Source: Octopus vulgaris (taxonomy: Eukaryota). Taken from it: a DNA stretch of 64,000 nucleotides. The translations under genes and the position numbers were made by a program. Shown here one piece after another: positions 2,953 to 61,680 of the stretch. Positions within the stretch are counted from its first letter, which is position 1; each line of letters starts with the position of its first letter. Under the pieces are notes generated by a model. That model had not been told where the DNA came from, made no database searches, and saw only the letters and a list, made by a program, of their open reading frames with translations. The stretch covers positions 21,080,001 to 21,144,000 of the forward strand of contig OX597817.1 of NCBI GenBank assembly GCA_951406725.2. Reading direction: 5' to 3'.

Positions 2953-4641
2953 TTACAGAGACATATCCGGGTGTAGGGGGTTATCCGGGATTTCTTGAAG
3001 GAATCTGTCCAAAGACTTCTTGAACCCTATAGGGTCAGTTTCTGTTTTAATGTGTTTTGGTGTAATGTTAAAGAGAGAGGGGCCAATTGAGGTGAAATAA
3101 TTGTGCCGTATTGTTGTTATGAGATGAGAGTACGATTTTTGTTTTGGGCGGATGGCACGGGGCCCAAGCCTTTGATGTACCCTAAAGGTGATGCCAACAT
3201 CATTTGGGCAATGCTGATGGAATATTTTCCACATCATGCAGATGATGTAGCGCTCACGACGACGTTGGAGAGAATAAAGTTTTAGCTTTTCTAGTCGACC
3301 CCAATAGTCGAGGCCTGTCATGCCATCTATCTTTTTTGTGATTGCCCTTTGAGATGCTTCAACTTTTATGATACCTTGTATTGTGTGGGGAGACCACAGT
3401 GGACAACAGTATTCAAGGTGGGGCCGGGCAAAAGTGGAGAAGAGAAGGATAATGGTGTGGATATCTCTCGACTGGAAAGTTCTGAGAATCCAGGAACACA
3501 TTCTGCGGGCCATGTCAACTTTGGTGTTTATATGAGTGGCCCAGCTTATGTTGTTGTCCACAATTACTCCCAAGTCTCTGATGTTGTTGGACGCCGCGAG
3601 AGTTTCACCTGAAGGAAGGGAGTATGGGAGTTTCAGGGCATCCTCTTTTCCAAAGTGGATTAACTCAAATTTATCCTCATTCAGCAGCATATTGTTTTTT
3701 TCTGCCCATTGGATAACAGCCAGTAGATCTGACTGAATGCATGTCCGGTCACTCGCCTCATTTATGACCTTCTGTAGCTTGGAATCATCTGCAAAAATTT
3801 TTATGTTGCTGTGCTTGATGATGTCATTAATGTCATTAATGTAAATGATGAAAAGAAGTGGGCCCAGCACAGTGCCTTGCGGAACGCCACTACTGACTTT
3901 GTCTGGGCTTGATTTTACCCCTTCAACTACAACATGTTGAGATCTGTCTGTCAGGAAATAATTGATCCATTTCAGTAACTTTCCAGAGACACCAATGTTG
4001 GATAGTTTTTTCAATAGGATCTTGTGATCGACCCTGTCGAAGGCCTTACTGAAATCAAGGTAGATGACATCGGTGTTGGAGCCCTCTCCCAAAGCTCTCA
4101 AAATGTCATCAAAGTGATGCAGGAGCTGCGTTAGGCAGTCCCTTCCATTACGGAACCCATGTTGTTTGGAGATCAGCCGTCTGTTGCTTTCCACAAATTG
4201 GGTTATTCGAGATCTCACCACCCTCTCAAATACCTTGATGATATGAGAGGTGAGTGAGATCGGACGGTAGTTCACTGCAAGGGACTTGTTTCCCTTTTTG
4301 AAAACTGGGACAACAGACTGGGACAGAAGGTTTTTTGGAATATAGCCAGCATCCAGTGAGTTTCTCCACAGATTAGCAAGTGGAGATGCAAGTTGGTGTC
4401 GACACACCTTCAGGACACAAGCAGGGAACCTATCGGGGCCTACTGCTGAATTGTGTTTTATTTCGTTTATCGCCGCTAAGACATCAGGGGCACTAAACGT
4501 TATGTCCGATATAGTTGGGGTTGACATCACTGATACAGCCCAGATCGGCCATATCAGGATTGCTGAAAACAGAGCAGTATTGTTTCTGCAGTATCTCGGC
4601 CATGGATTTGGCATTATCTTGGAGAGTGCCAGTTTCGTCAA
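2953..4641 (-). CDS. LINE ORF2 reverse transcriptase portion (frameshifted from the APE portion)
   Basis: YRPISLTS, QHGFR, YLDFSKAFDRV, GVPQGTVLGPLLF, FADD, DLGV, RPHLEYC, LYSLQRRR; a 1-bp shift near 2975 would restore a C-terminus PPTPGYVSVNNNSLLEW. Confidence 0.93.
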   Translation of the reverse strand: MTKLALSKIMPNPWPRYCRNNTALFSAILIWPIWAVSVMSTPTISDITFSAPDVLAAINEIKHNSAVGPDRFPACVLKVCRHQLASPLANLWRNSLDAGYIPKNLLSQSVVPVFKKGNKSLAVNYRPISLTSHIIKVFERVVRSRITQFVESNRRLISKQHGFRNGRDCLTQLLHHFDDILRALGEGSNTDVIYLDFSKAFDRVDHKILLKKLSNIGVSGKLLKWINYFLTDRSQHVVVEGVKSSPDKVSSGVPQGTVLGPLLFIIYINDINDIIKHSNIKIFADDSKLQKVINEASDRTCIQSDLLAVIQWAEKNNMLLNEDKFELIHFGKEDALKLPYSLPSGETLAASNNIRDLGVIVDNNISWATHINTKVDMARRMCSWILRTFQSRDIHTIILLFSTFARPHLEYCCPLWSPHTIQGIIKVEASQRAITKKIDGMTGLDYWGRLEKLKLYSLQRRRERYIICMMWKIFHQHCPNDVGITFRVHQRLGPRAIRPKQKSYSHLITTIRHNYFTSIGPSLFNITPKHIKTETDPIGFKKSLDRFLQEIPDNPLHPDMSL

Positions 4642-5870
4642 TTAGAGGGCCTACAGTGGAGACAGTGACCCTGCGTTTCCTCGCAAATGAAAAGAACACT
4701 TTGGGGTTGAGTTTGATTTTTTCAATGGCCCACTTCTCCTCAGCTGATCTTTGGTTATTGATGAGGGTCTTCATGCATTGTTGGAGGTTATATTTTTTGG
4801 ATTCAAGCAGTGCGATAGCCGTCGAATGTGTGTGTTGCTGTTGGCAGTACTTTAGTTTGTTAATTTTTTTGTTTGTTCTTTTTATTTTTCTGATAATGGT
4901 TTTTCTGTTTTGGGGGATTCTGCACTTTTTGTTCACAGGTCTTGGTGGGGAGTGTTTTGCACATATGTCTGTGACGGTGTCTACAAAGATCTGCCAAGAT
5001 GTTTTATGGTTGGTGGAGATGTGTGTATGTGTAAAGGACCAGTCAACATGTGATAGCTCGTTCCTGATTGCATCCCAGTTGGCATTATGGAGATCCATGT
5101 TGTCAAATGGGTGGGCTGGAGGAAGGTCACTAGGATTAGCTTTCGGCTGGTGGAATTTCATGTTACAGAGAACCATGTCATGGTCTGAAAGAAGGGTTTT
5201 TTCCACTGTAACGTCATGTATAGTGTTAGTGTGGTTACTAAACACTAGGTCCAAAATGTTCTGATGTCTTGTTGGTGCAAGGACAAGTTGGGACAAGAAA
5301 AACTCATTCGTAAAGTCGAAAAGTGACTCTGCTGCTTCTTTGTCAGCGGTTGAGGCGGGAGTGCTTGGTTTCAAACAGTTTGTAGTCCAGTCAACACAGG
5401 GTAGATTGAAGTCTCCCATCATGAGTATGTTGCTAGAATGGCACTGTTGAATAAAGCACTTAATGCTGTTGAGGCATTCTTTAAAGCACAGTATGGGTGT
5501 TTGGGGCGGCCTATAGAGCCCAATTACTGTCAGGTCATTGGCTTTGTTGTGCACGGTGACTGATTCACAGTAGCCGTTGGAGAATATACTATTTCCATCT
5601 GCCGTAAATGAATCATGCAGGAAAATGGCAGTTCCACTCTTCCTCCTGCCGATACGATCCGCGCGGATGGTTGTGATATTCTTCACTCTCACTTCGGCTT
5701 CCAAGTGGGAGTTGTCAAGGTGGGTCTCAGTGAGAATAAAAAAGCGATGTGGTGTGAATGGTTACCAACCCAGTCTTCAATGAATTGATTGGACCTTCCA
5801 TTTTTGTGCATTGATGGAAGGGCTGACACCTTGTGCATTGAGTAGGAATGTGGAGGTTAGTGTAGTGGCT
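4493..5870 (-). CDS. LINE ORF2 apurinic-like endonuclease (APE) portion
   Basis: ILTETHL, RADR, GLYRPP, MGDFN, LDLVFSN, SDHD motifs in the frame of ORF 4493-5704; the N-terminal FLLNAQG motif near 5830-5850 is cut off by a stop/frameshift near 5780. Confidence 0.88.
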
Positions 5871-6171
5871 GGTTTTGACTGTTGCAGGGGGCTTGGATTT
5901 TTTGTGTGTGTTAGTGGCAGCAATGTGGGGAATTGGTGCACTGGGGTAATAGCATAGGATGGTGTTGAGTGATGGCTAGAATGTTTTTGTGTATCTCTTT
6001 TGCCATGTTCAACATGGCTACAAAAGAATTTTCCTGCTTAGCGAGCAGTTTTTTGCTGGAGGTGTGGTTGCACTGTTGGATAGGGTTGTAGTTTCCACTT
6101 TTGTTGTTGTTGTTTTTGTGTCTTCCTGAAAAGACTGGACCAGCATTACTGCAGCATGATGTGTTTCTATT

Positions 6172-7134
6172 TTAATTTTTATTCAGGTTTGTGTGTTGGC
6201 TTGAAGCCCCGTTTCTGTTTGTGCGTCGGGTCCCTGGAAGATGAGTGAAGGGACAGTCACTCAGCAGACATGTTCTCTCACGTTGGGAATACCGGCAGAT
6301 TTTGGGACTCCGAGTTGTGTGTGTTTTGAATTTCGATTTACTATTTGGTGGTGTTGATGTTATTGTGGGATGAGTGCTTTGGCCTTGGCCAGTAGTGCGT
6401 CTAGTGCCGGGTAGATGCGTGAAGATGCAGTCACTATTTGTGCAGAGTCTCTGGCGCAGTGAATAGCGGCATATTTTGGGATTTCTTGTTTGTGCCGTGG
6501 GGGGCACATTCTGATTCCTATGTTTCTTTAAGTTTTTGTTACTGCAGTAGTATTGAGGTGGTGATGTGGGGGAAGAGGGCAGTGGTTTCTTATTTGGTTT
6601 TCTGTTGGTATTTTTGGTGATAGAAGACGATGGTGGCAGCGGTGGTGATGATGATGATGATAATTGTGGTGGTTGCCGTGAGAGCGGTGAAAAGTTACTG
6701 GCATTTAGTGAATCATCTAGTAAGCTAGAGTTGAGGAGTGGCTGTTGTTGTTCTTGTTGCTGTGGCTGTTGTTGTTGTGCTTGACCGATGTTAGGGTCAG
6801 CCATTGTGCTGGGAACCAGGAGTGGCTCATTATGTTGTTGTTGTTGTTGTGGCTGCTGATTTTCTAGCTGTTGCTGTTCTTGAACTGTGAAAATATGAAG
6901 AAGCTTTTCATAATGGCCTTTTGTCAGTTTGAAAGATACTTCGATATGTTTCAGTTTGCTACGAATCTGTTTGACGGATCGTGTGTTGACCACTTGTGAT
7001 GTTTTTTCGGCAATCTCATTCAAACACAAAACATTTAGATTTTCTGTTTGGGAAAGAGAGAACCATGTGTTTATTAAAACATCAAATTCGTTATCAGACC
7101 ACTTTCGTCTGTTGCAGGCCTGCAAGTTAGTCAT
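6172..7134 (-). CDS. LINE ORF1 with Myb/SANT-like N-terminus and two CCCH zinc fingers
   Basis: RRKWSDNEFDVLINTW...EIAEK...RSVKQIRSKLKHI; Q/P/S-rich linker; two CX8CX4CX3H motifs at about 6415-6471 and 6241-6297. Confidence 0.8.
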   Translation of the reverse strand: MTNLQACNRRKWSDNEFDVLINTWFSLSQTENLNVLCLNEIAEKTSQVVNTRSVKQIRSKLKHIEVSFKLTKGHYEKLLHIFTVQEQQQLENQQPQQQQQHNEPLLVPSTMADPNIGQAQQQQPQQQEQQQPLLNSSLLDDSLNASNFSPLSRQPPQLSSSSSPPLPPSSSITKNTNRKPNKKPLPSSPTSPPQYYCSNKNLKKHRNQNVPPTAQTRNPKICRYSLRQRLCTNSDCIFTHLPGTRRTTGQGQSTHPTITSTPPNSKSKFKTHTTRSPKICRYSQRERTCLLSDCPFTHLPGTRRTNRNGASSQHTNLNKN

Positions 7135-7605
7135 GTTTGTTTTTCTTTTGTTTGTTTTCCTTTTGATTTTTGAAAATATATATATTCTTTCTTGAGAGTT
7201 AAAGAAGTGTATATATATATAAATGTTCTCTCTTAAGGGTGTGAGTTTTTGATTATTTGGTTGTTTGATGATATTAAAAGAAAAACAGGTGTATATAACA
7301 ATTTGTAGTTAAATGAAAACGTACTTACGGGTTTGTAGGCAAACACGTTGTTACAAATATATATATATTTAAGGTCAGTTAACTTTTGAAGCTGTGTAGC
7401 TTGCTACTGACTTGGGAGAGAAACAAATAGACGTCCGTCCACTTCAACAGTTCAGCATATATATAAGATTTAATCTTTTTTCAGGGCACTGTTTCAATGT
7501 TTATAAACAGTTTAAAACTATTTTTTCTCCGTCTTATTCAACTGATGAGTTTATATTTCAGTTATACCAGTTGTGATTGAAGAGATATTCGTAAAAATGA
7601 AAACC

Positions 7606-8303
<698 letters not shown>

Positions 8304-9183
8304 TATATATATATATCTCACGGTATATTAACAGAGTGTCAATCTTTGTGTAATTTTACTATTTATGTTAATTTCTGAACAAAATACGACACTTCCTTTA
8401 TTACGATGTTTTTGAACGATGTTAGGCAAGATGCAGCTGTGAGAAATATTAGCCAACAGAAAATAATACTAAAAGGTTTTACAGCTTCAGTACACATAAT
8501 GTAGAGCCCTGCGTTTATAATACATGTATTTGATACATTCGTTAACAGAGATCATCCTTGCCATTTGAAGACAAGTAATTTCTTAACAGATATTTAAATT
8601 CTAAATTATTTGTAAACAAGCAAGGAACAGTATTCCATTAATATCAGCCGATCAAAATCTTTAAAAAAAAATAATAATGCAGTTAAGATTAGTTTTCTAT
8701 TTAGAGCCGTTTGACACAAGTTGTAGTTAACAGTTTTCATATGGTCATAGGAAACAAGTTATGAAACGTTTTTCACTGACTGGAGTTCTGTCTATGTGTA
8801 ACGAATGGGTAGCACTCATAAACAACAGCATTCGTAAAAAAATTACTCGACTATCACGGGTGTTACGTTCTAAAACCCAGCGTAGTTGGTTAAAATCCGC
8901 GAAGTTGAAACAGTAGCGTACTGTATGCTTTTAAAAATTATTTTAATAGTTTTTTAAAATATGTTTTTAATTATAAATGCAAAATAACACCACGGAGGAA
9001 TCGATTAAGCTTAAATAATAAACTCTGATTGGTGAACCGTGGTAGGTGAACTGCGATATGGCGATGGATTACTGTAAAATAATTTTATTTCTCTGCACAA
9101 ATCTTTTACATGATGGTCGTGACTTGAAACTGCAAAAACAAAGTTTACACACTGGAAAAGACAATTCTATAGCTGTTAGAATT

Positions 9184-16248: not shown

Positions 16249-16251
<3 letters not shown>

Positions 16252-16523
16252 TATGAAAGAATGGAGTTCAACGACGAATTAACTAAATTCCTTCATTTTC
16301 GACATGGAATAAGGAGTATATTATGTCGCTTTCTCATCAGGAAAAGCAAGGAGCGTATGTCAACATCAAGATGCACAAAAAACATTTAGATGACTGCTCA
16401 CACGGAGCCCATAGTGAAAATGAGTGTCTCTTTAAGAAATTCCTTCTCTGATGTGAATTTGCTACCCAGGTATCGGTTAACCGAATTATCCATAACAAGA
16501 TAATTCATTCAACTACTCAAATA

Positions 16524-16525
<2 letters not shown>
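16249..16525 (-). mobile_element. Non-coding pLTR-like element (family P4) with a partly deleted hammerhead
   Basis: Homologous to 50915-51281; keeps ttttc-CUGAUGA-G and the GUC-gaaaa end but lacks the GAAAC segment; flanked by (TA)n. Confidence 0.6.
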
Positions 16526-16570
<45 letters not shown>

Positions 16571-16726
16571 ATTATTATTATTATTATTATTTATATTATA
16601 TTGAGGGTACTACTATTCGTAGATACCAACACGCTAAGAGGGACCAATGCGGTCAAAACTACTAAAAATAAACAAAATTTTACCGAATGCAAAACTTCAA
16701 AACACATCATTTTAAAAAAGAATTCA

Positions 16727-16790
16727 GTTACATATCACATGTGATTTCGCATTTAATGCAGAATATGCATTTCATGTTCATCAGTGCAAC
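16727..16790 (-). ncRNA. Type I hammerhead ribozyme (P1)
   Basis: GUUGCA-CUGAUGA-ACAU..AAUGCA UAUUC UGCAUU..AUGC-GAA-AUCACAUGUGAU-A-UGUAAC; palindromic stem III; AUA cleavage triplet; A10.1/C11.1 mismatch. Confidence 0.8.
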
Positions 16791-17222
16791 AAGCTCAAGA
16801 AATATAAGAGAAAACATAACATTACAAGCTCGATAGCCAACCGTAGAATTCGTCGTAGCATGTACGAATGTTTATCTTTACATATCTATGAAAATGGCGG
16901 GCTTATTCGCAATGCATTTCGGTACCAAATTGTCTAGTCGGAATAAAAATTCAGTATTGAAATATTCCGGTGAAAAATATAAATTAACAATTGAGGATAA
17001 AATCTTTAAAAGAAATTATCAGTAGTCAGCATGAAAAACCTCGTAAGAGAAAAATCCGTAAATTCTTCCTCTTTGAAAATATTCATTTATATTATATTGA
17101 GGGTACTACTATTCGTAGATACCAACACGCTAAGAGGGACCAATGCGGCCAAAACTACTAAAAATAAACAAAATGTTACCGAATGCAAAACTTCAAAACA
17201 CATCATTTTAAAAAAGAATTCA

Positions 17223-17286
17223 GTTACATATCACATGTGATTTCGCATTTAATGCAGAATATGCATTTCATGTTCATCAGTGCAAC
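17223..17286 (-). ncRNA. Type I hammerhead ribozyme (P1, second copy)
   Basis: Same sequence as 16727-16790. Confidence 0.8.
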
Positions 17287-17397
17287 AAACTCAAGAAATA
17301 TAAGAGAAAACATAACATTACAAGCTCGATAGCCAACCGTAGAATTCGTCGTAGCATGTACGAATGTTTATCTTTACATATCTATGAATATCTTTAC

Positions 17398-17451
<54 letters not shown>

Positions 17452-24868: not shown

Positions 24869-24945
<77 letters not shown>

Positions 24946-24949
<4 letters not shown>

Positions 24950-25417
24950 CTACTAGTCCTTGTTGTATCACACATATCGGGGTATTTTCAACTCACCCTT
25001 ATTAATTAATTATAATTATGCTACATTTATTTCTAAATGTAGTATTTGTTCCCGTGAAAGTTTGGCGCGCTGTTAGTAGGGGCATTTGAATTATAACGTC
25101 GGATGTAATCAATTGAACCACACGTGTATTTATCGTTATGGTAAAATCTGGCGTGTGATTGAGTGGATTTCATCCAGATAGTTTTGGCTGAGGAGCTACA
25201 AGTAGATTTTTTTGTAAGTAAAATTACATTTAATTCATTAATAGCGAAACAATTGTCCCAAAATAATCTGTATTTTTGTTATTTTTTATTTGCCCTGTTC
25301 GTGTGAGCTAACAATCGTACTGACTTTCATGGGAAACATGTATTTTTGTGGTTGAAACCTTTTGGATTAACTAGTGCTAGAGTGAGCCATATAGTGACCA
25401 CTCTCTTATATTTATTT

Positions 25418-25476
<59 letters not shown>

Positions 25477-25521
25477 CTACTAGTCCTTGATGTATCACAC
25501 ATATCTGGGTATTTTCAACTC
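24946..25521 (+). mobile_element. Non-coding HHR-bearing element (family P2) bounded by a 49-bp direct repeat
   Basis: 24946-24994 and 25473-25521 differ at 2 positions and each follows a (TA)n tract; HHR at 25182-25263. Confidence 0.7.
25182..25263 (+). ncRNA. Type I hammerhead ribozyme (P2)
   Basis: UUUUGG-CUGAGGA-GCUA...UAGC-GAA-ACAAUUGU-C-CCAAAA; canonical core; GUC cleavage after 25257; stem I extendable (caga/tctg). Confidence 0.88.
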
Positions 25522-41582: not shown

Positions 41583-42204
41583 TTTCTGTTAGAGGCACAA
41601 GACCCTAAACTATTGAAGGAAGGTGATAGTCGATTACATCGACACCAGTATTTAACTGGTACTTACGTTTTCAATCCTGCTAGGCTGAATGGCAAAGTTG
41701 ATTCCTTCAGAATTTGAAGTAAGAATATACAAACGAAAGAAGTTAGCAATTCGTAAAATACCGTAAAACATATATAAATTTCTGAGATTAAAATAACAAA
41801 ATATTCCAATGGCTAACTAAAATGAAAAAAATCTTCATCCCCCAAATTAAAAGACTATCAGGCTCCACTGCCTATAACACAATACCTGCCCTTTTAAACT
41901 TTTACAAATAAGCTTCAGGTATAGAGTCGATATACATAACTCAGAAACCGATCCACGGAGCCTGATAATCATTTGATTTTGGAGATGGAGCTTTCTTCAT
42001 ACATTTGTTTATTATGCCTTATTTGGCGGATTCGAAGCTCCTGGAAACGTTGACGGAAATTCTATTGAAGCTTTTCTTATATCTATGACTATTGGGGAAA
42101 TGTTTTTCAATCACTGTTACGAATTTTTTACCTACAATAATCTAAACATAGAAGGAGAAATGTGGAACAAATAACTTATATAACTTATATATAACTTATC
42201 TTAG

Positions 42205-42303
42205 TTTATTATATATTAGTTATATTATTATATATTAGTTATATTATTATATATTAGTTATATTATCATATATTAGTTATATTATTATATATTAGTTATA
42301 TTA
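42205..42303. repeat. 19-bp minisatellite (tatattattatatattagt), about 5 copies
   Basis: Direct reading. Confidence 0.8.
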
Positions 42304-43391
42304 ATATAACTTATCTGAATTTATTATAAGAAAGTTTTTTTTTTTATAATATTTATATTTTCTGTTTAAATTCTCTGTCGTACAAGTCAGACGCCGTTAT
42401 ACTAAGGGACTGCCTTATCAAACATCTCTTTTGAGGAAGAGAGGTTAGACTTCGTATTATTAATGTTTGCTATATTTTTTTTGACGACAATAAAGTTGTG
42501 ATAAGTCTGTGTGCATACATAAATATTTCCCTTGGTTTATGGCAGGGCTTGGAAGCGTTTCGTTCTTAAGTCTAGCGAAATATCTAAAAAGTTAACTTTA
42601 GTCAAGTCTGTAGCCTATTAAAACACACTGTATATGACAGAATAAAAAAATGCTTTGCTCTCACCAATTATTACAGAACTTTATTTTAATGATGGTATAC
42701 GTCATTTCATGACGTATACTATAGTGAATCATGCTACATTTAATGTCTGTATGATGAATCACACACACACACACACGCGCACACACGCGAAGACATACAC
42801 AAACACATGAGTAATTTCAACACATAATTTGCTTCTATTGACACTACCACAGAAATGACTGACACCAAATGTGTGTAATAGATTATTCTAAAGGCATATC
42901 GTTCTTTTAACCGCTGTGTGATGCAGCTTCAATGCAATTATAAAAATGTCTACATCATACAGACAATCGAAGCATCGATGTTGGAAACTAATATATCGAT
43001 ATTGATCCGGCAGTGGACGATGTAAATCAGATCAAGAATAAATCAAGAGGAGGGCGATGGATTCGCTGAACTGTAAGAATGTCGGAGCGAATACGTTGTG
43101 GCCTTTGTTCTGACTCAATCTGTTACGAGTTCAAATCACATTGCTGTCAACTTCGCTAGTAGACTTAGTTATCATTAGGTTTCTATATACCACCTGGTAC
43201 CTTGATGGACCTTCAGCAGATTCAACTCTATCGCACTCAAGCAAGTACCGGGTTCAAGTTTCCATCCACCTCCTTCTCGTTAAATTCTTAGGCATTGTGT
43301 GGTGTCGATGACACTTCATTTTCTGATAGTAAAAATGATAACATGTACATAATAGATAGGCAATGAATGCAAACTCTAAATTATTAAAGAA

Positions 43392-44607: not shown

Positions 44608-44609
44608 TA

Positions 44610-44938
44610 ATAATAAAATATTAGGGAATAAATCCAAACTTACAGGGAAAAATCAGATTTAGGATTGAATCCAATTTTATAGTAAAATATTATATTATAT
44701 TAAATTAGAGATAAAACCACTATTAGGCAAATCATACAATGAAAAACTTAAGCCAATACATAAGATTAATTAATTTATATTATTTAAATATATATCAAAA
44801 TTATTTAAAACAATAATTAATTATCTTTTTTAATAATTTTGATATATATTTAAATAATATAAATTAATTAATCTTATGTATTGGCTTAAGTTTTTCATTG
44901 TATGATTTGCCTAATAGTGGTTTTGTCTCTAATTTAAT

Positions 44939-44945
<7 letters not shown>
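44610..44945 (-). mobile_element. Non-coding pLTR fragment related to family P3: inverted arms plus tail
   Basis: Tail 44610-44690 nearly identical to 48410-48487; arms ~44693-44805 and ~44832-44945 inverted; (TA)n on both sides. Confidence 0.7.
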
Positions 44946-44997
<52 letters not shown>

Positions 44998-48411: not shown

Positions 48412-48584
48412 AAATATTAGGGAATAAATCCAAATTTACAGGGAAAAATCAGATTTAGGATTAAATCCAATTTTATAGTAAAATATTATATAATATTAAT
48501 TAGAGACAAAACCACTATTTTGCAAAACAAACAAGGAAAGACTTAATCAATACATAAAATTTTAGTAAAAAGTTAAAAAAACCG

Positions 48585-48627
48585 CCACTACAATTGTTTC
48601 ATGTCTTGAACGACAATCTTCAGGTGG
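48585..48627 (-). ncRNA. Minimal type I hammerhead ribozyme (P3)
   Basis: Reverse complement of 50701-50743. Confidence 0.78.
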
Positions 48628-50700
48628 ATTTCCGATCTAAAATATCAATATTTTAAAATATAAGTATAAAAAATAATTTTAAAATAATTAAAGTATCAAT
48701 GAAAAAATATAAATATATAATCTATATATAACCTAAATATAATCCATATATAATCAATATATAAACTAAAATAAACCTATCAACAATTAAATATAAAACA
48801 AAATAAAAATAAACTATATATACACCCATACACATATAACTAAGTATATATAACCATATCTAAATACATACACTAACTCACACACCTATATATATATCCC
48901 TATACAAACACATAAAAACGTCTAGGCAACGATAAATAAATAAAATAGCCAAATACTACAACACAATACTTATTTATACTCCCTCACACACACATACAAC
49001 CCACATTCATAAACAATATACGTATACCCGCTCACACATACATATACAAACATACAGAACTCGATATATACACCAATATATTCACACCCACATCTATACA
49101 GATAAATAAATTACGCAAACAATCACACACACATTCACACATCCATAAACACTCAAAAGAAAAATAAACAATTCTTTGCACGTGGTGATCGAACGTTTTT
49201 TTTTTTTTAAATTATGAATGGAATAATATATAATCAACTTAAATATACAGAATTTACTACAAATCATTAATAAACCATCATGATAAATGAAACCCATATA
49301 CATATAATGATAAAACTCCCTTTACCATACACAATTATACCTATATAGCAATCTCCATATATACATTCACACACAAATATACATAGGTAAAACACACACA
49401 CACACAACATATACGTATACCCCCTCACATATACATATACATACTTACTAAACTCGATATATACAACAATATGTTCACACCCACACTCATACAGATAAAT
49501 AAATTACACAACTAAAATATGCACACACACACACATTCACACATACATAAACACTCAAAAGAAAAACAACATTACTACACATAATACGATATATAAAATA
49601 CTTCATAAGTAACCAGAATATCATAAGTAACAAGATTAACATAAGGAGAAAAAAATATACATACTTTCAAATCAGTTTCAAATTATGAAGTGAAATTAAA
49701 CTCTAGCCGTTAAAAGCGTCAAACAAAATTACGTTAACATAGGAACCTAACATATGTATAAAAAGTATTCGCGCTCTGGAAACGAACGTCATTTAAAATT
49801 ATGAATGGAATAAATGGAATAAATGGAATTAAAAATTATATTCACGTGGTAAACGAACATTACTTAAAAATTATGAATGGAATAATGTAATAAAATAACA
49901 ATATGTGAGGGGGTATACGTATATGTTGTGTGTGTGTGTTTTACGTATGTATATTTGTGTGTGAATGTATATATGGAGATTGCTATATAGGTATAATTGT
50001 GTATGGTAAAGGGAGTTTTATCATTATATGTATATGGGTTTCATTTATCATGATGGTTTATTAATGATTTGTAGTAAATTCTGTATATTTAAGTTGATTA
50101 TATATTATTCCATTCATAATTAAAAAAAAAAACGTTCGATCACCACGTGCAAAGAATTGTTTATTTTTCTTTTGAGTGTTTATGGATGTGTGAATGTGTG
50201 TGTGATTGTTTGCGTAATTTATTTATCTGTATAGATGTGGGTGTGAATATATTGGTGTATATATCGAGTTCTGTATGTTTGTATATGTATGTGTGAGCGG
50301 GTATACGTATATTGTTTATGAATGTGGGTTGTATGTGTGTGTGAGGGAGTATAAATAAGTATTGTGTTGTAGTATTTGGCTATTTTATTTATTTATCGTT
50401 GCCTAGACGTTTTTATGTGTATGTATAGGGATATATATATAGGTGTGTGAGTTAGTGTATGTATTTAGATATGGTTATATATACTTAGTTATATGTGTAT
50501 GGGTGTATATATAGTTTATTTTTATTTTGTTTTATATTTAATTGTTGATAGGTTTATTTTAGTTTATATATTGATTATATATGGATTATATTTAGGTTAT
50601 ATATAGATTATATATTTATATTTTTTCATTGATACTTTAATTATTTTAAAATTATTTTTTATACTTATATTTTAAAATATTGATATTTTAGATCGGAAAT

Positions 50701-50743
50701 CCACCTGAAGATTGTCGTTCAAGACATGAAACAATTGTAGTGG
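50701..50743 (+). ncRNA. Minimal type I hammerhead ribozyme (P3)
   Basis: CCAC-CUGAAGA-UUGUC GUUCAA GACAU-GAA-ACAAUUGU-A-GUGG; GUA triplet; U10.1/U11.1 mismatch. Confidence 0.8.
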
Positions 50744-50828
50744 CGTTTTTTTTTACTTTTTACTAAAATTTTATGTATTGATTAAGTCTTTCCTTGTTTG
50801 TTTTGCAAAATAGTGGTTTTGTCTCTAA

Positions 50829-50901
<73 letters not shown>

Positions 50902-50914
50902 TATATATAGATAG

Positions 50915-51279
50915 ATAGGTATTTCAATAGGTGAATGAATTATCCTATGTTTATCCTCAGCATGGAAAATTCGTTGAACCGATACCAGGGTAGCAAATTC
51001 ACGTCAGAAACACGGTTGAAGCGACCTGTTCAAGGGTAGAAACTCCGGGTTCATGTGCAGAAATTTGTGTGTTATATATGAATAAATGAAAGAATGGAGT
51101 CGAACGAAGATGTTAACAAAATTCTTTTACTCTCGACATATGTTTCGAAGACAAGCTGGTTTCTTTCCAAAGGAATAAAGGGTGTAAGATGCAATCTTCT
51201 CATCAGGAAAGAAAGGGAGACTCTCTCGACAAGACAAACAAAAATTTAGATGACCGCCTACATGGTAGACAAAACGATA

Positions 51280-51281
<2 letters not shown>
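50915..51281. mobile_element. Non-coding pLTR-like element (family P4), internally inverted relative to 16249-16525
   Basis: 50915-51010 (+) matches the minus strand of ~16445-16525; 51083-51281 (-) matches the minus strand of ~16250-16410 and holds an intact HHR. Confidence 0.65.
51130..51211 (-). ncRNA. Type I hammerhead ribozyme (P4)
   Basis: CUUUC-CUGAUGA-GAAGA...UCUUC-GAA-ACAUAUGU-C-GAGAG; fully canonical core; GUC triplet; palindromic stem III. Confidence 0.88.
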
Positions 51282-51321
<40 letters not shown>

Positions 51322-51468
51322 GGTTAAGTAATTGAGATTCTAGTGAATTCTAAAGAATTCACATGAATATGTTCCTTAACTAGGATGCACCGGAAATCTA
51401 TATGGTGTTAACCATACGACAAATGGGGTGATTACAAATAGGAAAAAAGCAACAAGAATGGCTTAAAA

Positions 51469-51556
51469 TCTCGGTACGATCGTTTCGTACGAGGACATCT
51501 TTAATAAGCTACAAAAAATGCAGTGAATACAGATGGCTCGTACTCGTCAGCCGAAA
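51469..51556 (-). ncRNA. Type I hammerhead ribozyme (P5)
   Basis: Reverse complement of 51590-51676. Confidence 0.87.
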
Positions 51557-51589
51557 AAACATCAGAGAATTCCCAAACATCTGATGTTT

Positions 51590-51676
51590 TTTCGGCTGAC
51601 GAGTACGAGCCATCTGTATTCACTGCATTTTTGTAGCTTATTAAAGATGTCCTCGTACGAAACGATCGTACCGAGA
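51590..51676 (+). ncRNA. Type I hammerhead ribozyme (P5)
   Basis: UUUCGG-CUGACGA-GUACGAG...CUCGUAC-GAA-ACGAUCGU-A-CCGAGA; canonical core; GUA cleavage after 51670. Confidence 0.9.
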
Positions 51677-51702
51677 TTTTAATCCATTCTTGTTGCTTTT
51701 TT

Positions 51703-51841
<139 letters not shown>

Positions 51842-52060: not shown

Positions 52061-52093
<33 letters not shown>

Positions 52094-52119
52094 CAATATG
52101 TTACATTACTCGGTAGTCA

Positions 52120-52182
52120 AGATAAAACTCTGAGTTTCAGATGCCGAAGTGGAAATCCACAACACCATCTCTTCGGTTATCT
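52120..52182 (-). ncRNA. Variant type I hammerhead ribozyme (PLE pLTR)
   Basis: Reverse complement of 55927-55989. Confidence 0.6.
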
Positions 52183-52377
52183 GGCTATTTGAAAACGTTA
52201 TGAAAAAATACCGTTAAAAATGAAGGGAAATTACTCTGTTATAACTCTGCTTTGCCTGCGTACTTATACATCGCTCGCATTTTTCGTCATAAAAATTATA
52301 TAAAAATACATAAAAAATATATAAAAATATATAAAAATATATAAAATCTTCTTGGGACATAACACAGAAAGCATGTT

Positions 52378-53835
52378 CTATCCGTTTTCTTTAGGGGACC
52401 AAAAACGTAACAGAAATTTAGTCACATGTGGGCATGATCCGAAAAGTTCTGTCCTTGTATTTAGACATGTGGTAGGGTCTAAGCTGCTTTTCCAGATAAG
52501 CCATCTCTCCATGTCGCATAAACCGCACCTTCCGCTGCCGTTAGTATAGGGCTTACATCTGGCCAAAATCTTCCATTGTATGTTATAATCGACACCTTTA
52601 TCTCTTAAAGACCAAATATGATTGGATAATTGTGTCGCTTTTCTTTTGTTCCAGTGCCTAAAGCTCAAAGTGTGGTTATTGAACCTGGCCTTGAAATTAC
52701 CCTCTGTCAGGCCCACGTATTTCTTCGTCAAAACGGTGTCTTTAGTGGTTATAGAGTTTACGGTAGCCTCATATATGATGGTCTTGGACATGCAAGCTCC
52801 ATTTAGCGGGCACAATTCTTTATTCCTGCATGAACAGCTGTTTTCTTCTTGTGTTTTTTGTATGTTATGATTGATTATGTTTTTAAAATTGGTAGTTGAA
52901 CTAAAACTAATTTTTAAATTGTGTCTATTGAAGAGTTTCCTATAAGCATGGTTAACTGGAAAATGTCTATCTATCAGTGCTAGGAAATATTTACCTATAT
53001 TGAAGGCCACCTCGGGTGAGTAAGGGGGCGTAAACCAGATGACCTTCCTATTTCTATTATTCCTTTTCTTTATTGTTGGGCTGGTGATAGGTGTATATTT
53101 TATTTTTTCGCTAAAACCACTATCTTTTAAAGCTTTATTATAAACTGGGGCAACGCTATTGAAGATGTCCTCATTAGATGAGAGGCTAGAAATCCTCTTA
53201 CTAATATTTTTAACTAAATTTTTGAATACTATAGGGGGATGGCATGAACCTACATTAATATAACTTAGTCTATCATTGGGCTTCCTATAAGGCTTATAAA
53301 TATTATTATTAAGATCTAAGGAAACGTCTAAGAAATTGACAACCGTCAGGTTAGTGTCTATAGTTATACTAAGTCCGAAGTGTTTCATTAACTGGATAAT
53401 ATCCTTCCTAAAACGATCTTGTGCTGGTCCATTTGTATTAGCTGTTAAGGCGAGGGCATCATCTTTGTAGATGGCGAAATGTACGTTAGGGAATGTCTTA
53501 CTGAAGGTATCTAGGAGAAAGAGTCCAATTAGATCACAGATGCCTGCCCCATCATATGAACCCATGCTCACATCGAAAGCGCCCTCCGTGTCGGTGTTTT
53601 TTACCCACTTTGCATTCTCACTGAAAAGTAATGTCTTTCTAGCATGGAAGATTATATCCTTATCATTGGTACTAATTTCTATGAAGTCACTAGCGAAGAT
53701 TAGGGCTTTATCTAGCAGTTCTTTAGAGATAGAGGCATAAAAATCAACAATATCGAATTGTGTAAACCTCGCTTTTTTCTTATTCTTAATAGCTTTAAAC
53801 CAGTCTACGACTTCTATACTATTGGACCATTGCAC
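52378..53835 (-). CDS. PLE reverse transcriptase + GIY-YIG endonuclease (5'-truncated, open frame)
   Basis: QFDIVDFYASI, FDVSMGSYDGA, YKDD, FLDVSL, WFTPPYS, CSCR..CPLNGAC, IIYEA...YVGLT..FKARFNNH, CGLCDME, LNTRTEL. Confidence 0.92.
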   Translation of the reverse strand: MQWSNSIEVVDWFKAIKNKKKARFTQFDIVDFYASISKELLDKALIFASDFIEISTNDKDIIFHARKTLLFSENAKWVKNTDTEGAFDVSMGSYDGAGICDLIGLFLLDTFSKTFPNVHFAIYKDDALALTANTNGPAQDRFRKDIIQLMKHFGLSITIDTNLTVVNFLDVSLDLNNNIYKPYRKPNDRLSYINVGSCHPPIVFKNLVKNISKRISSLSSNEDIFNSVAPVYNKALKDSGFSEKIKYTPITSPTIKKRNNRNRKVIWFTPPYSPEVAFNIGKYFLALIDRHFPVNHAYRKLFNRHNLKISFSSTTNFKNIINHNIQKTQEENSCSCRNKELCPLNGACMSKTIIYEATVNSITTKDTVLTKKYVGLTEGNFKARFNNHTLSFRHWNKRKATQLSNHIWSLRDKGVDYNIQWKILARCKPYTNGSGRCGLCDMERWLIWKSSLDPTTCLNTRTELFGSCPHVTKFLLRFWSPKENG

Positions 53836-53915
53836 TAGCCTAGTATCGGTCTTAATTTTCGTATTTATTTTATCTAAAATTTCTTTGCTAATAATCCCTA
53901 GTTCTGACTTGGCTG

Positions 53916-55731
53916 AAGCTCCAAGAAAAAAGCACTTTTTTCGGATAAAACCAAGAACTTATACCTGGTAGATAACAGCAAATACACACAACTCTTACAC
54001 AACAGCATCATTAATAATTATACTAAGGCTAGGGCACAGACATATAACGAAATTAATAAAGAAGCTAGCGTCATCGCCGCTAAACTTAAATTAGATAAAA
54101 AAATAGAAACCCTCCCCAAAAAGAGGCCTTTATTACTATTAAAGACCACAAAGAAAACTTCCTTTCCAATCCTAAATGTAGGCTTATCAACCCAGCCAAG
54201 TCAGAACTAGGGATTATTAGCAAAGAAATTTTAGATAAAATAAATACGAAAATTAAGACCGATACTAGGCTAGTGCAATGGTCCAATAGTATAGAAGTCG
54301 TAGACTGGTTTAAAGCTATTAAGAATAAGAAAAAAGCGAGGTTTACACAATTCGATATTGTTGATTTTTATGCCTCTATCTCTAAAGAACTGCTAGATAA
54401 AGCCCTAATCTTCGCTAGTGACTTCATAGAAATTAGTACCAATGATAAGGATATAATCTTCCATGCTAGAAAGACATTACTTTTCAGTGAGAATGCAAAG
54501 TGGGTAAAAAACACCGACACGGAGGGCGCTTTCGATGTGAGCATGGGTTCATATGATGGGGCAGGCATCTGTGATCTAATTGGACTCTTTCTCCTAGATA
54601 CCTTCAGTAAGACATTCCCTAACGTACATTTCGCCATCTACAAAGATGATGCCCTCGCCTTAACAGCTAATACAAATGGACCAGCACAAGATCGTTTTAG
54701 GAAGGATATTATCCAGTTAATGAAACACTTCGGACTTAGTATAACTATAGACACTAACCTGACGGTTGTCAATTTCTTAGACGTTTCCTTAGATCTTAAT
54801 AATAATATTTATAAGCCTTATAGGAAGCCCAATGATAGACTAAGTTATATTAATGTAGGTTCATGCCATCCCCCTATAGTATTCAAAAATTTAGTTAAAA
54901 ATATTAGTAAGAGGATTTCTAGCCTCTCATCTAATGAGGACATCTTCAATAGCGTTGCCCCAGTTTATAATAAAGCTTTAAAAGATAGTGGTTTTAGCGA
55001 AAAAATAAAATATACACCTATCACCAGCCCAACAATAAAGAAAAGGAATAATAGAAATAGGAAGGTCATCTGGTTTTACGCCCCCTTACTCACCCGAGGT
55101 GGCCTTCAATATAGGTAAATATTTCCTAGCACTGATAGATAGACATTTTCCAGTTAACCATGCTTATAGGAAACTCTTCAATAGACACAATTTAAAAATT
55201 AGTTTTAGTTCAACTACCAATTTTAAAAACATAATCAATCATAACATACAAAAAACACAAGAAGAAAACAGCTGTTCATGCAGGAATAAAGAATTGTGCC
55301 CGCTAAATGGAGCTTGCATGTCCAAGACCATCATATATGAGGCTACCGTAAACTCTATAACCACTAAAGACACCGTTTTGACGAAGAAATACGTGGGCCT
55401 GACAGAGGGTAATTTCAAGGCCAGGTTCAATAACCACACTTTGAGCTTTAGGCACTGGAACAAAAGAAAAGCGACACAATTATCCAATCATATTTGGTCT
55501 TTAAGAGATAAAGGTGTCGATTATAACATACAATGGAAGATTTTGGCCAGATGTAAGCCCTATACTAACGGCAGCGGAAGGTGCGGTTTATGCGACATGG
55601 AGAGATGGCTTATCTGGAAAAGCAGCTTAGACCCTACCACATGTCTAAATACAAGGACAGAACTTTTCGGATCATGCCCACATGTGACTAAATTTCTGTT
55701 ACGTTTTTGGTCCCCTAAAGAAAACGGATAG
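53916..55731 (+). CDS. PLE RT + GIY-YIG, longer copy with frameshifts (~54120 and ~55075)
   Basis: Adds DKTKNLY, TIKDHKENF and RLINPAKSELG upstream; an extra T at ~55075 splits ORFs 54273-55118 and 55099-55731. Confidence 0.9.
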
Positions 55732-55926
55732 AACATGCTTTCTGTGTTATGTCCCAAGAAGATTTTATATATTTTTATATATTTTTATATATTTTTTATG
55801 TATTTTTATATAATTTTTATGACGAAAAATGCGAGCGATGTATAAGTACGCAGGCAAAGCAGAGTTATAACAGAGTAATTTCCCTTCATTTTTAACGGTA
55901 TTTTTTCATAACGTTTTCAAATAGCC

Positions 55927-55989
55927 AGATAACCGAAGAGATGGTGTTGTGGATTTCCACTTCGGCATCTGAAACTCAGAGTTTTATCT
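55927..55989 (+). ncRNA. Variant type I hammerhead ribozyme (PLE pLTR)
   Basis: AGAUAA-CCGAAGA-GAUG...CAUCU-GAA-ACUCAGAGU-U-UUAUCU; U4C core variant; GUU triplet; offset at the base of stem II. Confidence 0.6.
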
Positions 55990-57189
55990 TGACTACCGAG
56001 TAATGTAACATATTGTATAGATAAATTTCCTCTATTTACATAATATTGAGGTCTCTTTCTTTCTTTTGTTATCTTACCGTTTTATCAATATATATATATA
56101 TATATATATATTTATTATATTATATATATATTATATTGTATTACATATGTCACACACACTCACAATATTTCCCTTTGTTTCTGCATTGTGACTGTAAATT
56201 GTAAATGCGAAGTCCAGACAGGTCGGCTCTAGAATTAGATTAACATACCGATGAAATATTCCTTCTTTTATTATATATCATCCACAATTCGCAATTAATA
56301 AACTGAAAGCACATCTTCGAAACCGACGGAGACTCTACCACCACTGTGTAGTATATGAGTATAAGCGCCGTGTCAAAGACACAGGTCTATTTGATGTAAC
56401 AAAAATATATATTGAGCCATTGCTCATGTATTTAGTACAATGTCAGGGTCGGTGCTGTTCCAGCCATATGATTAGATAAAATCCATGTTGCGCTATCGAT
56501 TGCTCTACCGTACATATTCGTATCAAGATACTAATATCAGAATTCATTATGTTTTCATAGTATTGATTTCTATCATCGGTACTAGGCTACGAATTCATTG
56601 AGCATAGCAGTAGTCAATTTAATCTACTCCAGTATTTGACTGGTAATTATTTTATCGATCTCAGATATATAAAAGGCGCGCCAGAATAATAGCATAAGGC
56701 ATTCATTCTGGCGCTCCACTCTTTCTTCCACCCTGTTAACCTTTATATGTTATTAATATTACTTTGTAAGTGAGCAGCTGGGGTCATCGTTTCTTTCTTT
56801 GAGAGGTCGTTCCGTGAGAAGGAAATAATTCTATCGCAGCCATGTTTGTGCGGTATCCTTAATTCAGCAGTTGTTCACACTAGAGGTTATATGAACAGTC
56901 TATACTTCAAGATTTTACTTTAGCATTTTAGTTAGAAATCCGAACTCAATGTTTCTAAGCCAACCAAATGCAGAGAAAGACTGCAGTGGTTATATGCTTG
57001 ATATTCTGCTTCAAGCTTAACGTCTAGTCGCAGAGAAATACTTGGGGTCTTTTAGAGCGAAAATATCTTAAATTATTAATGTTGCTACATTTAATCAAAT
57101 AAAGACAATATCTCTTCCCACGCACAAAAGCACACACAGACACATACACAGACACATCTACACGCACAGACATACAAAAGAAATCGGTT

Positions 57190-58960: not shown

Positions 58961-60109
58961 CATGTAAGGGAGAGATGCTGAAATTGAGAAATAGACGAGG
59001 GGAGCTTAATTGCTAGATACAGTGGTATATTCTTCATTGATAGCAGAACGGATGAGTGAATAATGTTGCAGTAAAATGATAGTATTTGTTCAAGGCAAAT
59101 TTTGGTTGGTCGCTGCAGATGAGTAAACTCTTTTTCTAAGTGAACAACATATGCTATCATATATCATAACATGCTGATATGAAAACAGATAGAAAATTAG
59201 GAACAGATAATCTCTTTATTCTTGTAATCTATATCGAAAATCAGCCTCCCCCACCCCACTATATATATTTCGCTGCAGCTAAAATTGCTTTTTCTGATGC
59301 TATACGCATGTCATTGAACCATTTCTGAGATATTAATTTTGCATCATAAACGTTTTTAAAAGTAATATGTCTAAAATATGAACACCGGCATCTGATCATT
59401 GGTAGTGAATAACATTTTTAACACATTGTTTCGTAGGAATAAAGGCGTTTCTGGTATTATGTCTTCTGCATATCTAAGTTTTATTGCTGTGATACGTCTC
59501 AAACTGTATGATATATTGAAAACTGCATAATATATCAAAACCCTGGTTATCCTGAATGTACTGAAGAAAGTACGGTATTTGAGGTTTAGGGGAGTCTGCA
59601 TTAATACTTCCATCTTGTCCAAAAATTTCGATACTAGGTTCTTGTGTTGGAATTAGCATCAATAATTGCATGAAACAAGCATATATAATGGATAATGTAT
59701 AATTGTAATTTTGTTACAATTATATACACTCCTTTTATGAAAAGAAATTTTGCGTACATGTTCGGGCCACTAATGTATTCGTGAATAATTTTGAATTGTA
59801 TTTTTAGTTTCATTCCTCTTTTATTATTTATTGTTCACTCATATCCAACTTTTTGCCGTGGTTCGTGTAACTGGTCTCCTCTTATAAACGCTGTGCATGA
59901 CGTTTGAATTCAGATTTTAAGTTGTGTAGATATACATTGACACAGTATTCTTGCCGCTCAGGACACATCTTAAGCCCAAAGGTTTGTGTTTTTTTGTGTT
60001 CATTTCTATGCATAGGAATTTTTTCTCCTGGCGTTAAGAATGTACTCGCCATGTTGCTAGCGAAACACCAATTTTTCATGACAGGTTAGGGCCTGAAATC
60101 TTTAAAACG

Positions 60110-61680
60110 GATGCATAGAGAATAAGGCTTGAGCTCTTCTATTCGATTCAAATAGTCAAAGCCTCTCATGCCATATATATTTTTCGTAATTGACATTTGA
60201 GATGCTACATTTTTCATAACACTTTGTTTCGTGTGGGGAGACCACAGTGAAAAATAGTATTCAAGGTGGGGTCGGGCAAAAGTTGAGAAGAAAAGGATAA
60301 TGGTGTGAATATCTCTCGACTGGAAACTTTTGAGAATCCTGGAACACATTCTGCGGACCAGGTCAACTTTGTTGATTATATGAGCAAGGCAGCATATGTT
60401 GGTGTCGACAATTACTCCCAAGTCTCTGATGTTGTTGCATGCCATGAGACTTACACATGAAGGAAGGAAATATGAGAGTTTCAGGGCATCTTCTTTTCCA
60501 AAGTGGATTAACTCAAATTTGTCCTCGTTCAACAGCGTATTATTCTTTTCTACCCATTGGATGACAACTAGTAGATGTTGCTCAGGGCATGGTCGGTAAC
60601 CTTCTTCATTGATGACTTTCTGGATCTTGGAATCAGCTGCAAACATTCTTATGTTACTGTACTTGATGACGTCAGTAATGTCATTGATATAGATGTTGCA
60701 AAAAAGTGGGACCGACATTGTACTTTGAGGAACACCACTATTGACTTTGGCTGAGCTTGATCTTACTCCTTGGACTACAAAGTGTTGCGTTCTGCCTGTT
60801 AGAAAACACTTGATCTATTGTAGGCACCAATGTTGGATAGGTTTTTCAATAGGATCTTATGATTCACTCTGTCAAAGCCCTTGCTGAAATCAAGGTGGAT
60901 GATAACAGTATTCGACTCCTCTCCCAAAACTCTCAACATTTTAGCAAGGTGATGCAAGAACTGCGTTAGGTTGTTCTTTCCATTATGGAACCCATGTTGG
61001 TTTGGGTTCAGCTGTCTGTTGCTTTCAAGAAAGTGGGTTATCCATGACCTCACCAGCTTGATGATGAGCGGTGAGCGAAATCGGCCGGTGGTTCACTACA
61101 AGGGCCTTATTTCACTTTTTGAAAACTGGAACAACATACTAGGACAGAAGGTTTCCAGGAATATAACCAGTATCCAGTGAGTTCCTCCACAGATTAGCAA
61201 TAGGAGATTCAAGTTGCTGTCGATACACCTTCAGGAGACAAGCAGGGGACCTATCAGCGCCTACTGCTAAATTGTGTTTAATTTCGTTTATTGCCGCTCA
61301 CTCAACAGGGGCGCAGGACGTTATGTAGTGTGATGAGGACTAACATCACTGATGTACTTTAGATCAGCCATATAAGGATTGCTAAAAACAGAGCAGTGCT
61401 GTTTCTACAGTATCTCACTCATGGTTTTTGGCATTATCTTGGAGAGTACCATTTTCATCAATTAGAGGGCCAACAAGGGACACAGTGAATTTGTGATTTT
61501 TCGCAAAAGTGAACAGCTGTTCTTTGGTTATTGATGATGATCTTCATGTATTGTTAGGGATTATATCTTTTTGATTCGAGCAGGCTGATGGCCGTCATAT
61601 ATCTGTGTGGCTGTTGGCAGTATTTCAATTTAGCAATTTTTTGTTTGTTCTTTTTATTCCTCTGATATCCGTTTTTCTCT
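60110..61680 (-). mobile_element. Diverged, truncated copy of the LINE at 2819-7455 (RT region)
   Basis: Collinear with ~3270-4905; QHGFH, HLDFSKGFDRV, FAAD (FADD mutated), RPHLEY; frameshifts. Confidence 0.88.

Follow-up and report, generated by a model that had tools for sequence, protein, structure and literature searches.

A 1.6-unit hammerhead repeat in Octopus vulgaris is likely a non-autonomous retrozyme mobilized by Penelope-like elements

Introduction

Metazoan non-LTR retrozymes are non-coding and of low GC content (below 45%), with units of 150 to more than 1000 nt (PMC7229834). All of these properties are found in the insertion described here, which has a GC content of 32% and a unit of 496 nt, and which further shares with metazoan retrozymes the head-to-tail arrangement of the unit, a single type I hammerhead motif per unit that is predicted to be favored as a dimer, and the co-occurrence of autonomous Penelope-like elements (PLEs). 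The unit is longer than the retrozyme circles of ~170–400 nt detected by Northern blot (Cervera and de la Pena 2020, PMC7229834) and falls within the 51–972 bp consensus range of Li, Clavereau and Pollet 2026 (10.64898/2026.07.22.740005), where a link between retrozymes and PLEs is also argued. In contrast to the metazoan retrozymes, the insertion holds only 1.6 units and has an A·C combination at ribozyme positions 10.1/11.1, and its cleavage and circles are predicted.

PLE insertions are marked by a partial tandem, an inverted 5' copy, a one-sided tail, and a (TA)n target (PMC8557442). PLEs of the Hydra clade and non-autonomous ones such as MRC1 (Craig et al. 2021, PMC8557442) share with our insertion and its family the pseudo-LTR partial tandem, the inverted 5' copy, the one-sided tail, the position of the hammerhead in the repeat, and the (TA)n target. 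The tail is 108 nt here compared with 30–40 nt in the described PLEs (PMC8557442), and our insertion has no ORF. No description of such marks (tail, head-to-head copy) was found for retrozymes in the available parts of PMC7229834 and 10.64898/2026.07.22.740005. In vitro, reverse transcription by a PLE enzyme starts at two internal sites, whose spacing equals the tail length (PMC11167929). The Poseidon PLE PAc of Anolis (Frangieh et al. 2024, PMC11167929) resembles our family in that two fixed 3' ends delimit a tail downstream of the hammerhead, and in its AT-rich target, but it is an autonomous element with start sites near to each other and a ribozyme that extends over the start of the ORF. 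The minimal PLE hammerheads (Cervera and de la Pena 2014, PMC4209133) are, like the motifs described here, of type I with a long helix II and a palindromic helix III, and are predicted to act as dimers. They differ in their conserved G10.1-C11.1, a position at which one subfamily of our element has A·C and another has G, and the helix III palindrome is, at 10–12 nt, unlike theirs (PMC4209133). Judged by the sequence features tested, those of a non-LTR retrozyme or non-autonomous PLE, the insertion likely belongs to a type of element that has been described in other animals. No report of a cephalopod retrozyme or of an octopus hammerhead-Penelope element was found beyond PMC8557442 in a search that covered the main text of mainly openly accessible papers.

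Results

Anatomy of the insertion

The window analyzed is a 64,000-nucleotide stretch of the O. vulgaris genome (contig OX597817.1, positions 21,080,001 to 21,144,000), and all coordinates refer to it. The insert comprises ~800 bases without an ORF and corresponds to 1.6 units of a 496-base repeat, read on the minus strand. It begins with a 5'-truncated 5' copy of the repeat (17085–17388, 0.61 unit) and ends with a pseudo-LTR-like 3' copy (16589–16892), each of 304 bp, which recur with a period of 496. A preliminary description of this stretch had reported two near-identical copies of 299 bp separated by 197 bp of unique sequence. The copies are indeed near-identical, with three mismatches (16653/17149, 16679/17175, and 16793/17289), but they are 304 bp long, and the spacer (16893–17084) measures 192 bp. 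Nor is the spacer unique outside the locus, as 108 nt of it recur at 8201–8308 and, in each of two DNA runs, contigs span the unit completely (30 of 30 bins). The spacing of 496 nt given for the two hammerhead motifs was confirmed (core starts at 17280 and 16784, predicted cuts after 17229 and 16733), as was the lack of an ORF, since on the circularized unit the longest ATG frames measure 39 aa (minus strand) and 69 aa (plus strand).

The spacer consists of two parts. The first, a 108-bp "tail" (16977–17084, minus strand), directly follows the 5' copy and ends at 16977, where its final ~5 nt form a microhomology with (TA)n. The second, of 84 bp (16893–16976, minus strand), is continuous with the repeat in other copies, being joined to it across 16892/16893 in contig records 5, 16, 20, and 21. 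Two 3' ends 108 nt apart are recurrent, since the ends at 16589 (end 1) and 16977 (end 2) are both found again elsewhere, the former in the left arm of a second insertion at 8012.

On the 3' side the insert is flanked by (TTA)n (~16567–16590) followed by (TA)n (~16526–16566), which together (16526–16590) represent the insertion target; no target-site duplication is discernible in this flank. The 5' junction (17389–17439) shows a 13-nt duplication (17389–17401 repeats 17369–17381) followed by (AT)n. The ~100 nt upstream of the ribozyme (17290–17388, minus strand) are predicted to form one long hairpin (z -2.2; 6 of 200 shuffles were equally stable), and the 5' truncation of the insert lies at the base of this hairpin. 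Cleavage at both predicted sites would release a monomer of 496 nt (16733–17228, minus strand, 32% GC), which may then circularize. No Pol III B-box was matched in the 496-nt unit.

Two hammerhead motifs predicted to act as a pair

A type I hammerhead motif is present in each copy, in agreement with the preliminary description. The upstream motif (17223–17286, minus strand) has a predicted cut after A17229 and the downstream motif (16727–16790, minus strand) after A16733. Each motif has a helix I of 6 bp, the core elements CUGAUGA and GAAA, a long helix II, and an AUA triplet; in the downstream motif, helix II comprises 9 pairs with an internal loop. Helix III is formed by a 12-nt palindrome (16734–16745, minus strand) with a twin at 17230–17241, and pairing between the two ribozymes is predicted through these segments. 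The motifs were detected with our own type I descriptor, using dinucleotide shuffles as the control. None of 2000 dinucleotide shuffles of the monomer matched, and the whole window gave 8 real matches against 0 in each of 30 shuffles (10 matches in the window at a looser setting). Rfam gave no match in the whole window at the gathering score and no hammerhead up to E = 5 in 16580–17400, where a single lncRNA match (E 4.6) is attributed to chance. The motif call therefore rests on the descriptor, folding, and family variation.

Both ribozymes carry A10.1·C11.1 where the consensus has G-C, and thus deviate from the canonical G10.1-C11.1. From its sequence the ribozyme is classed as a variant and not as a canonical hammerhead. 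An axolotl retrozyme in which a U·U mismatch closes the base of helix II shows weak cleavage as a single motif and improved cleavage when dimeric, and one retrozyme with such a mismatch is among those that form circles (PMC7229834). Folding of the lone octopus motif favors an inactive hairpin (-13.5 kcal/mol) over the hammerhead (-9.3 kcal/mol), whereas two motifs co-fold freely as a double hammerhead, at -38.2 kcal/mol compared with -27.0 kcal/mol for the separate folds. Within the 804-nt transcript, too, the double hammerhead (-179.3 kcal/mol) is more stable than two single forms (-169.7 kcal/mol), and it comes near the free minimum of -182.5 kcal/mol. A double hammerhead between the two ribozymes is accordingly a prediction of the folding model.

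Variation within the family appears to avoid the ribozyme structure. Between 16725 and 16793, only 1 of the 10 listed substitutions hits one of the 48 core or paired positions among 69 (P = 4e-5, post hoc). When the dimer helix is counted as well, the figure is 2 of 10 (P = 1e-4, also post hoc), and for core positions alone P is 0.13; a single subfamily supplies the majority of the 10 variants. In one contig helix II carries a paired +A/+U insertion, which lengthens it by one A-U pair. These post hoc comparisons point to constraint on the ribozyme, and constraint on a ribozyme of the dimer type suggests that cleavage is of importance for the family.

Other copies of the family

A second insertion of the family (8012–8308) is arranged head-to-head and bounded by (TA)n at both ends. 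Its left arm corresponds to the 3' 116 nt of the repeat, and its right arm, which runs through the repeat-to-spacer junction, to the 3' ~75 nt of the repeat followed by the tail of 108 nt. The (TA)n insertion site is thus found for both family insertions in the window, and also at loose ends of run contigs.

The stretch is contained in 20 of the 24 public runs listed. These belong to 12 studies, represent 7 coded organisms, and reach a word share of 0.68 at best. Contigs of four runs (X1, X3, X8, and X20) were compared with the monomer 16589–17084 as reference. Only contigs were used; 995 were placed from X1, 7 from X3, 607 from X8, and 1 from X20. The RNA status of X3 is guessed and that of X20 is on record. 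All 30 bins of the unit are covered in X1, X3, and X8, and the return junction from 17084 to 16589 is present in three of the four runs, with length variants. The preliminary description had named a 496-bp period and permuted ends in other copies as a check on its reading, and the run contigs and the 8012 insertion show a 496-nt family unit that is closed, non-coding, and permuted in its ends. Five X1 contigs and 12 X8 contigs have loose ends that run into (AT)n at 16977, which is the same end as at 8308. The border between the tail and the 84-bp spacer part at 16977 is bridged by one X1 contig with at least 31 nt on each side. Among the 14 loose ends listed, with 105 others and 1615 pieces beyond these, none showed another common sequence upstream of 16976. 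The insert is a head-to-tail repeat with at least two ribozymes, its 1.6 units containing two complete motifs; neither two full units nor a long tandem source array was seen in the window or in the run contigs. Scans with an exact 24-nt pattern gave 0 loci in metagenome contigs, viral contigs, and prokaryote genomes.

In X1 and X8 the contig depths of most bins sum to ~1e4 to 4e5, values that are not usable as copy number, and contig depth in X1 dips over the ribozyme. At position 10.1, G accounts for 8903 of 17597 depth in X1 (~51%) and 7193 of 51567 in X8 (14%). The A·C version at 16777 makes up about half of the contig depth in X1 and most of it in X8, and therefore marks a spreading subfamily and not local decay. 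X1, X3, and X8 also contain a second subfamily of ~87% identity, which has G10.1, A7, and a 3' end of its own, as well as variants in unit length; in one X8 contig the ribozyme region is skipped. The family is young, widespread, and polymorphic.

In X3, four contigs of 298, 127, 63, and 129 nt (records 10, 14, 15, and 16) join through overlaps of 30 nt each into a closed loop of 497 nt, which is ~99% like the locus, contains no flanking DNA, and has a depth of 5–18, in a run whose RNA nature is a guess. The other contigs of the 7 are one bubble on the loop and two from diverged forms. The loop does not separate a circle from a tandem, because a tandem transcript or tandem DNA would close equally well. 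The single X20 contig (250 nt, depth 2.2) runs across the cut site and is compatible with a precursor, a circle, or DNA alike, and thus is no demonstration of transcription. We consider the chances that the family produces circular RNA to be about even.

Coding potential and neighboring elements

Protein searches gave no sign of a PLE ORF remnant in the unit. A 45-aa frame in the spacer had 0 matches up to E 0.001 among 1.84 billion proteins, a weak test given the short query. In a tblastn comparison of 121 PLE proteins with the element, the best E on the sense strand was 0.2. The best E overall, 0.001, came from a gapped 39-aa stretch on the antisense strand and was judged to be due to chance. 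An autonomous PLE ORF with RT and GIY-YIG endonuclease is absent from the element, and blastn against the PLEs inside the window gave no match, so that the element is without sequence similarity to the local autonomous PLE.

That local PLE lies at 52083–56026, where a head-to-head pair of 5'-truncated copies with near-identical arms of ~1.8 kb is very young. It contains a 526-aa frame (P0001) with RT and, at the C terminus, a nuclease of the GIY-YIG type, domains that were read from motifs, Pfam giving no match. P0001 has 208 relatives at E up to 1e-20 and a Hydra-like CxCX5C linker, as described for the Hydra clade (PMC8557442). This element is a candidate source of the mobilizing enzyme. Its hammerheads are variants with a CCGAAGA core, at 52176 (minus strand) and 55933 (plus strand), and a tail of ~60 nt is present on one side. 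A decayed fragment of another Hydra-like PLE ORF is located at 41971–42611 (minus strand).

The window is rich in microsatellites and crowded with hammerhead-bearing elements. A second non-coding hammerhead partial tandem (24882–25521) has a period of 527, a hammerhead at 25188 (plus strand), and (TA)n inside the unit. The head-to-head insert at 48414–50841 has hammerheads at 48623 (minus strand) and 50705 (plus strand), a 69-nt one-sided tail, and arms with strong AT and GC skew and no long ORF; a short head-to-head relative is found at 44608–44951. Another short head-to-head insert (51321–51707) carries hammerheads at 51550 (minus strand) and 51596 (plus strand) and a 117-nt one-sided tail. 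A further hammerhead family at 50900–51285 has an intact-looking motif at 51206 (minus strand), and a relative at 16250–16525, with a degenerate motif near 16340 (minus strand), adjoins our insert on the left between two (TA)n tracts. The window also contains a LINE (2953–7308, minus strand) with an ORF1 (weak Myb-like and CCCH matches) and with AP endonuclease and RT in shifted frames. Among 120 relatives listed its highest identity (62%) is to Argonauta hians, and an 82–86% identical fragment lies near 60086–61326.

Discussion

The insertion is likely a non-autonomous retrozyme mobilized by PLEs. The family shows PLE hallmarks in its (TA)n targets, partial tandem, inverted 5' copy, and one-sided tail, and a one-sided tail of ~60–117 nt is present in all four head-to-head inserts examined in the window, including the P0001 element. 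As these insertion marks are found on a unit without an ORF, mobilization by PLEs is supported by anatomy and not only by co-occurrence.

The explanation we favor, with moderate confidence, is that the 1.6-unit insertion was copied into (TA)n from an uncleaved RNA of more than one unit, the retrozyme being a passenger of a PLE. A tandem source would be transcribed from the minus strand, and a PLE protein, possibly of the Hydra type encoded at 52083–56026, would nick (TA)n. Reverse transcription would start at either of two internal positions of the RNA that are separated by 108 nt, in this case site 1 at 16589, copy 800 nt through both ribozymes, and stop at 17388, at the base of the predicted long hairpin, with a 13-nt slip. 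The two ribozymes, for which activity is predicted only when they pair with each other, would divide such transcripts into monomers of 496 nt, and ligation may turn some of these into circles. In vitro, unprocessed multi-copy RNA is the main substrate of a PLE RT and the PLE's own hammerhead is dispensable (PMC11167929).

The sequence difference between the copies suggests derivation from a multi-unit RNA rather than from one monomer circle. Copy 1 has T at position 16679, as do the runs, where no T-to-G variant reaches at least 5 in 100, whereas copy 2 and the left arm of the 8012 insertion have G. A single circle is disfavored, since one circle would give identical copies, and these differ at 16679/17175, with the letter of copy 2 as in the 8012 insert. 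The argument is weak, resting on one site, and gene conversion or back-mutation could explain the difference. Templates longer than one unit must also be rebuilt, because a 1.6-mer without a 3' tail shortens at every linear round. A circle is most simply the rebuilder of such templates, which counts against copying by linear RNA only.

We regard it as possible, though doubtful, that the double hammerhead frees the 496-nt monomer for closure by a host ligase, and that a PLE RT runs 1.6 times around one circle, priming 144 nt downstream of the ligation site. The geometry of the cut sites fits this route exactly, a double hammerhead is predicted over two separate folds, and the preference of the lone motif for an inactive hairpin would protect the circle. 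Coral, mussel, and axolotl retrozymes form circles (PMC7229834), and a circular template was earlier proposed for PLE replication (PMC4209133). The loop closed by the X3 contigs lacks flanking sequence, as expected of a circle, but could arise equally from a tandem, at a depth of 5–18 in X3 and 2.2 in X20, and the circular fold of the unit has only modest stability (z -2.1). A10.1·C11.1 is present in both motifs, eight of nine Xenopus retrozyme dimers were not cleaved in vitro (10.64898/2026.07.22.740005), and hammerhead mutants left PLE insertion in vitro unreduced (PMC11167929). The preliminary description had considered the locus a possible product of rolling-circle-like reverse transcription of a circular RNA. 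Its retrozyme reading is supported by the closed non-coding unit with permuted ends, and the less likely part is a single circle as the template, given the difference between the copies at 16679/17175.

It is improbable that two 5'-truncated PLE ends were joined by a template jump, or that the spacer is the ORF start or deleted remnant of an autonomous PLE, with the 496-nt period accidental. The tail starts with ATG directly behind the repeat end, PLE tails are the 5' start of the next unit (PMC11167929), and the unit could have originated by an ancient deletion. However, all unit junctions recur in other copies, the longest minus-strand ATG frame is 39 aa, and neither the short spacer frame nor the tblastn comparison with the 121 PLE proteins gave a significant match. 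The preliminary description had itself named a spacer that is the 5' start of an autonomous PLE as the case against its reading; no autonomous ORF was found behind the spacer, none of the 121 PLE proteins gave a significant match to it, and such an origin is unsupported because the unit junctions recur and the protein searches gave no ORF remnant. Local DNA duplication within a monomer insertion, covering a portion of it and combined with decay of the ribozyme, by slippage or by the unequal crossover accepted as a route of satellite growth and discussed for retrozymes (10.64898/2026.07.22.740005), is very unlikely despite the 13-nt slip at the 5' junction, because the same repeat-to-spacer junction is present at 8012–8308 and in three of the four runs, and the depth share of A·C in X1 and X8 is that of a spreading subfamily.

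Beyond copying from uncleaved multi-unit RNA, it may tentatively be proposed that the family replicates by way of an abundant 496-nt circular RNA, cut out by a hammerhead that acts only as a dimer and afterwards spares the circle, and that a Hydra-type PLE RT enters this circle at two fixed sites 108 nt apart. The family is suited to a test of circle against linear RNA because it is young, widespread, and polymorphic, and comparison of neighboring units could decide whether the partial tandems of PLEs originate from circles or from linear multimers. If a circle does serve as a PLE template, the family would offer a minimal non-coding substrate, provided by nature, in which the circles of retrozymes are connected with the tail and pseudo-LTR of PLEs, and the circular-template model of PLE replication would become directly testable.
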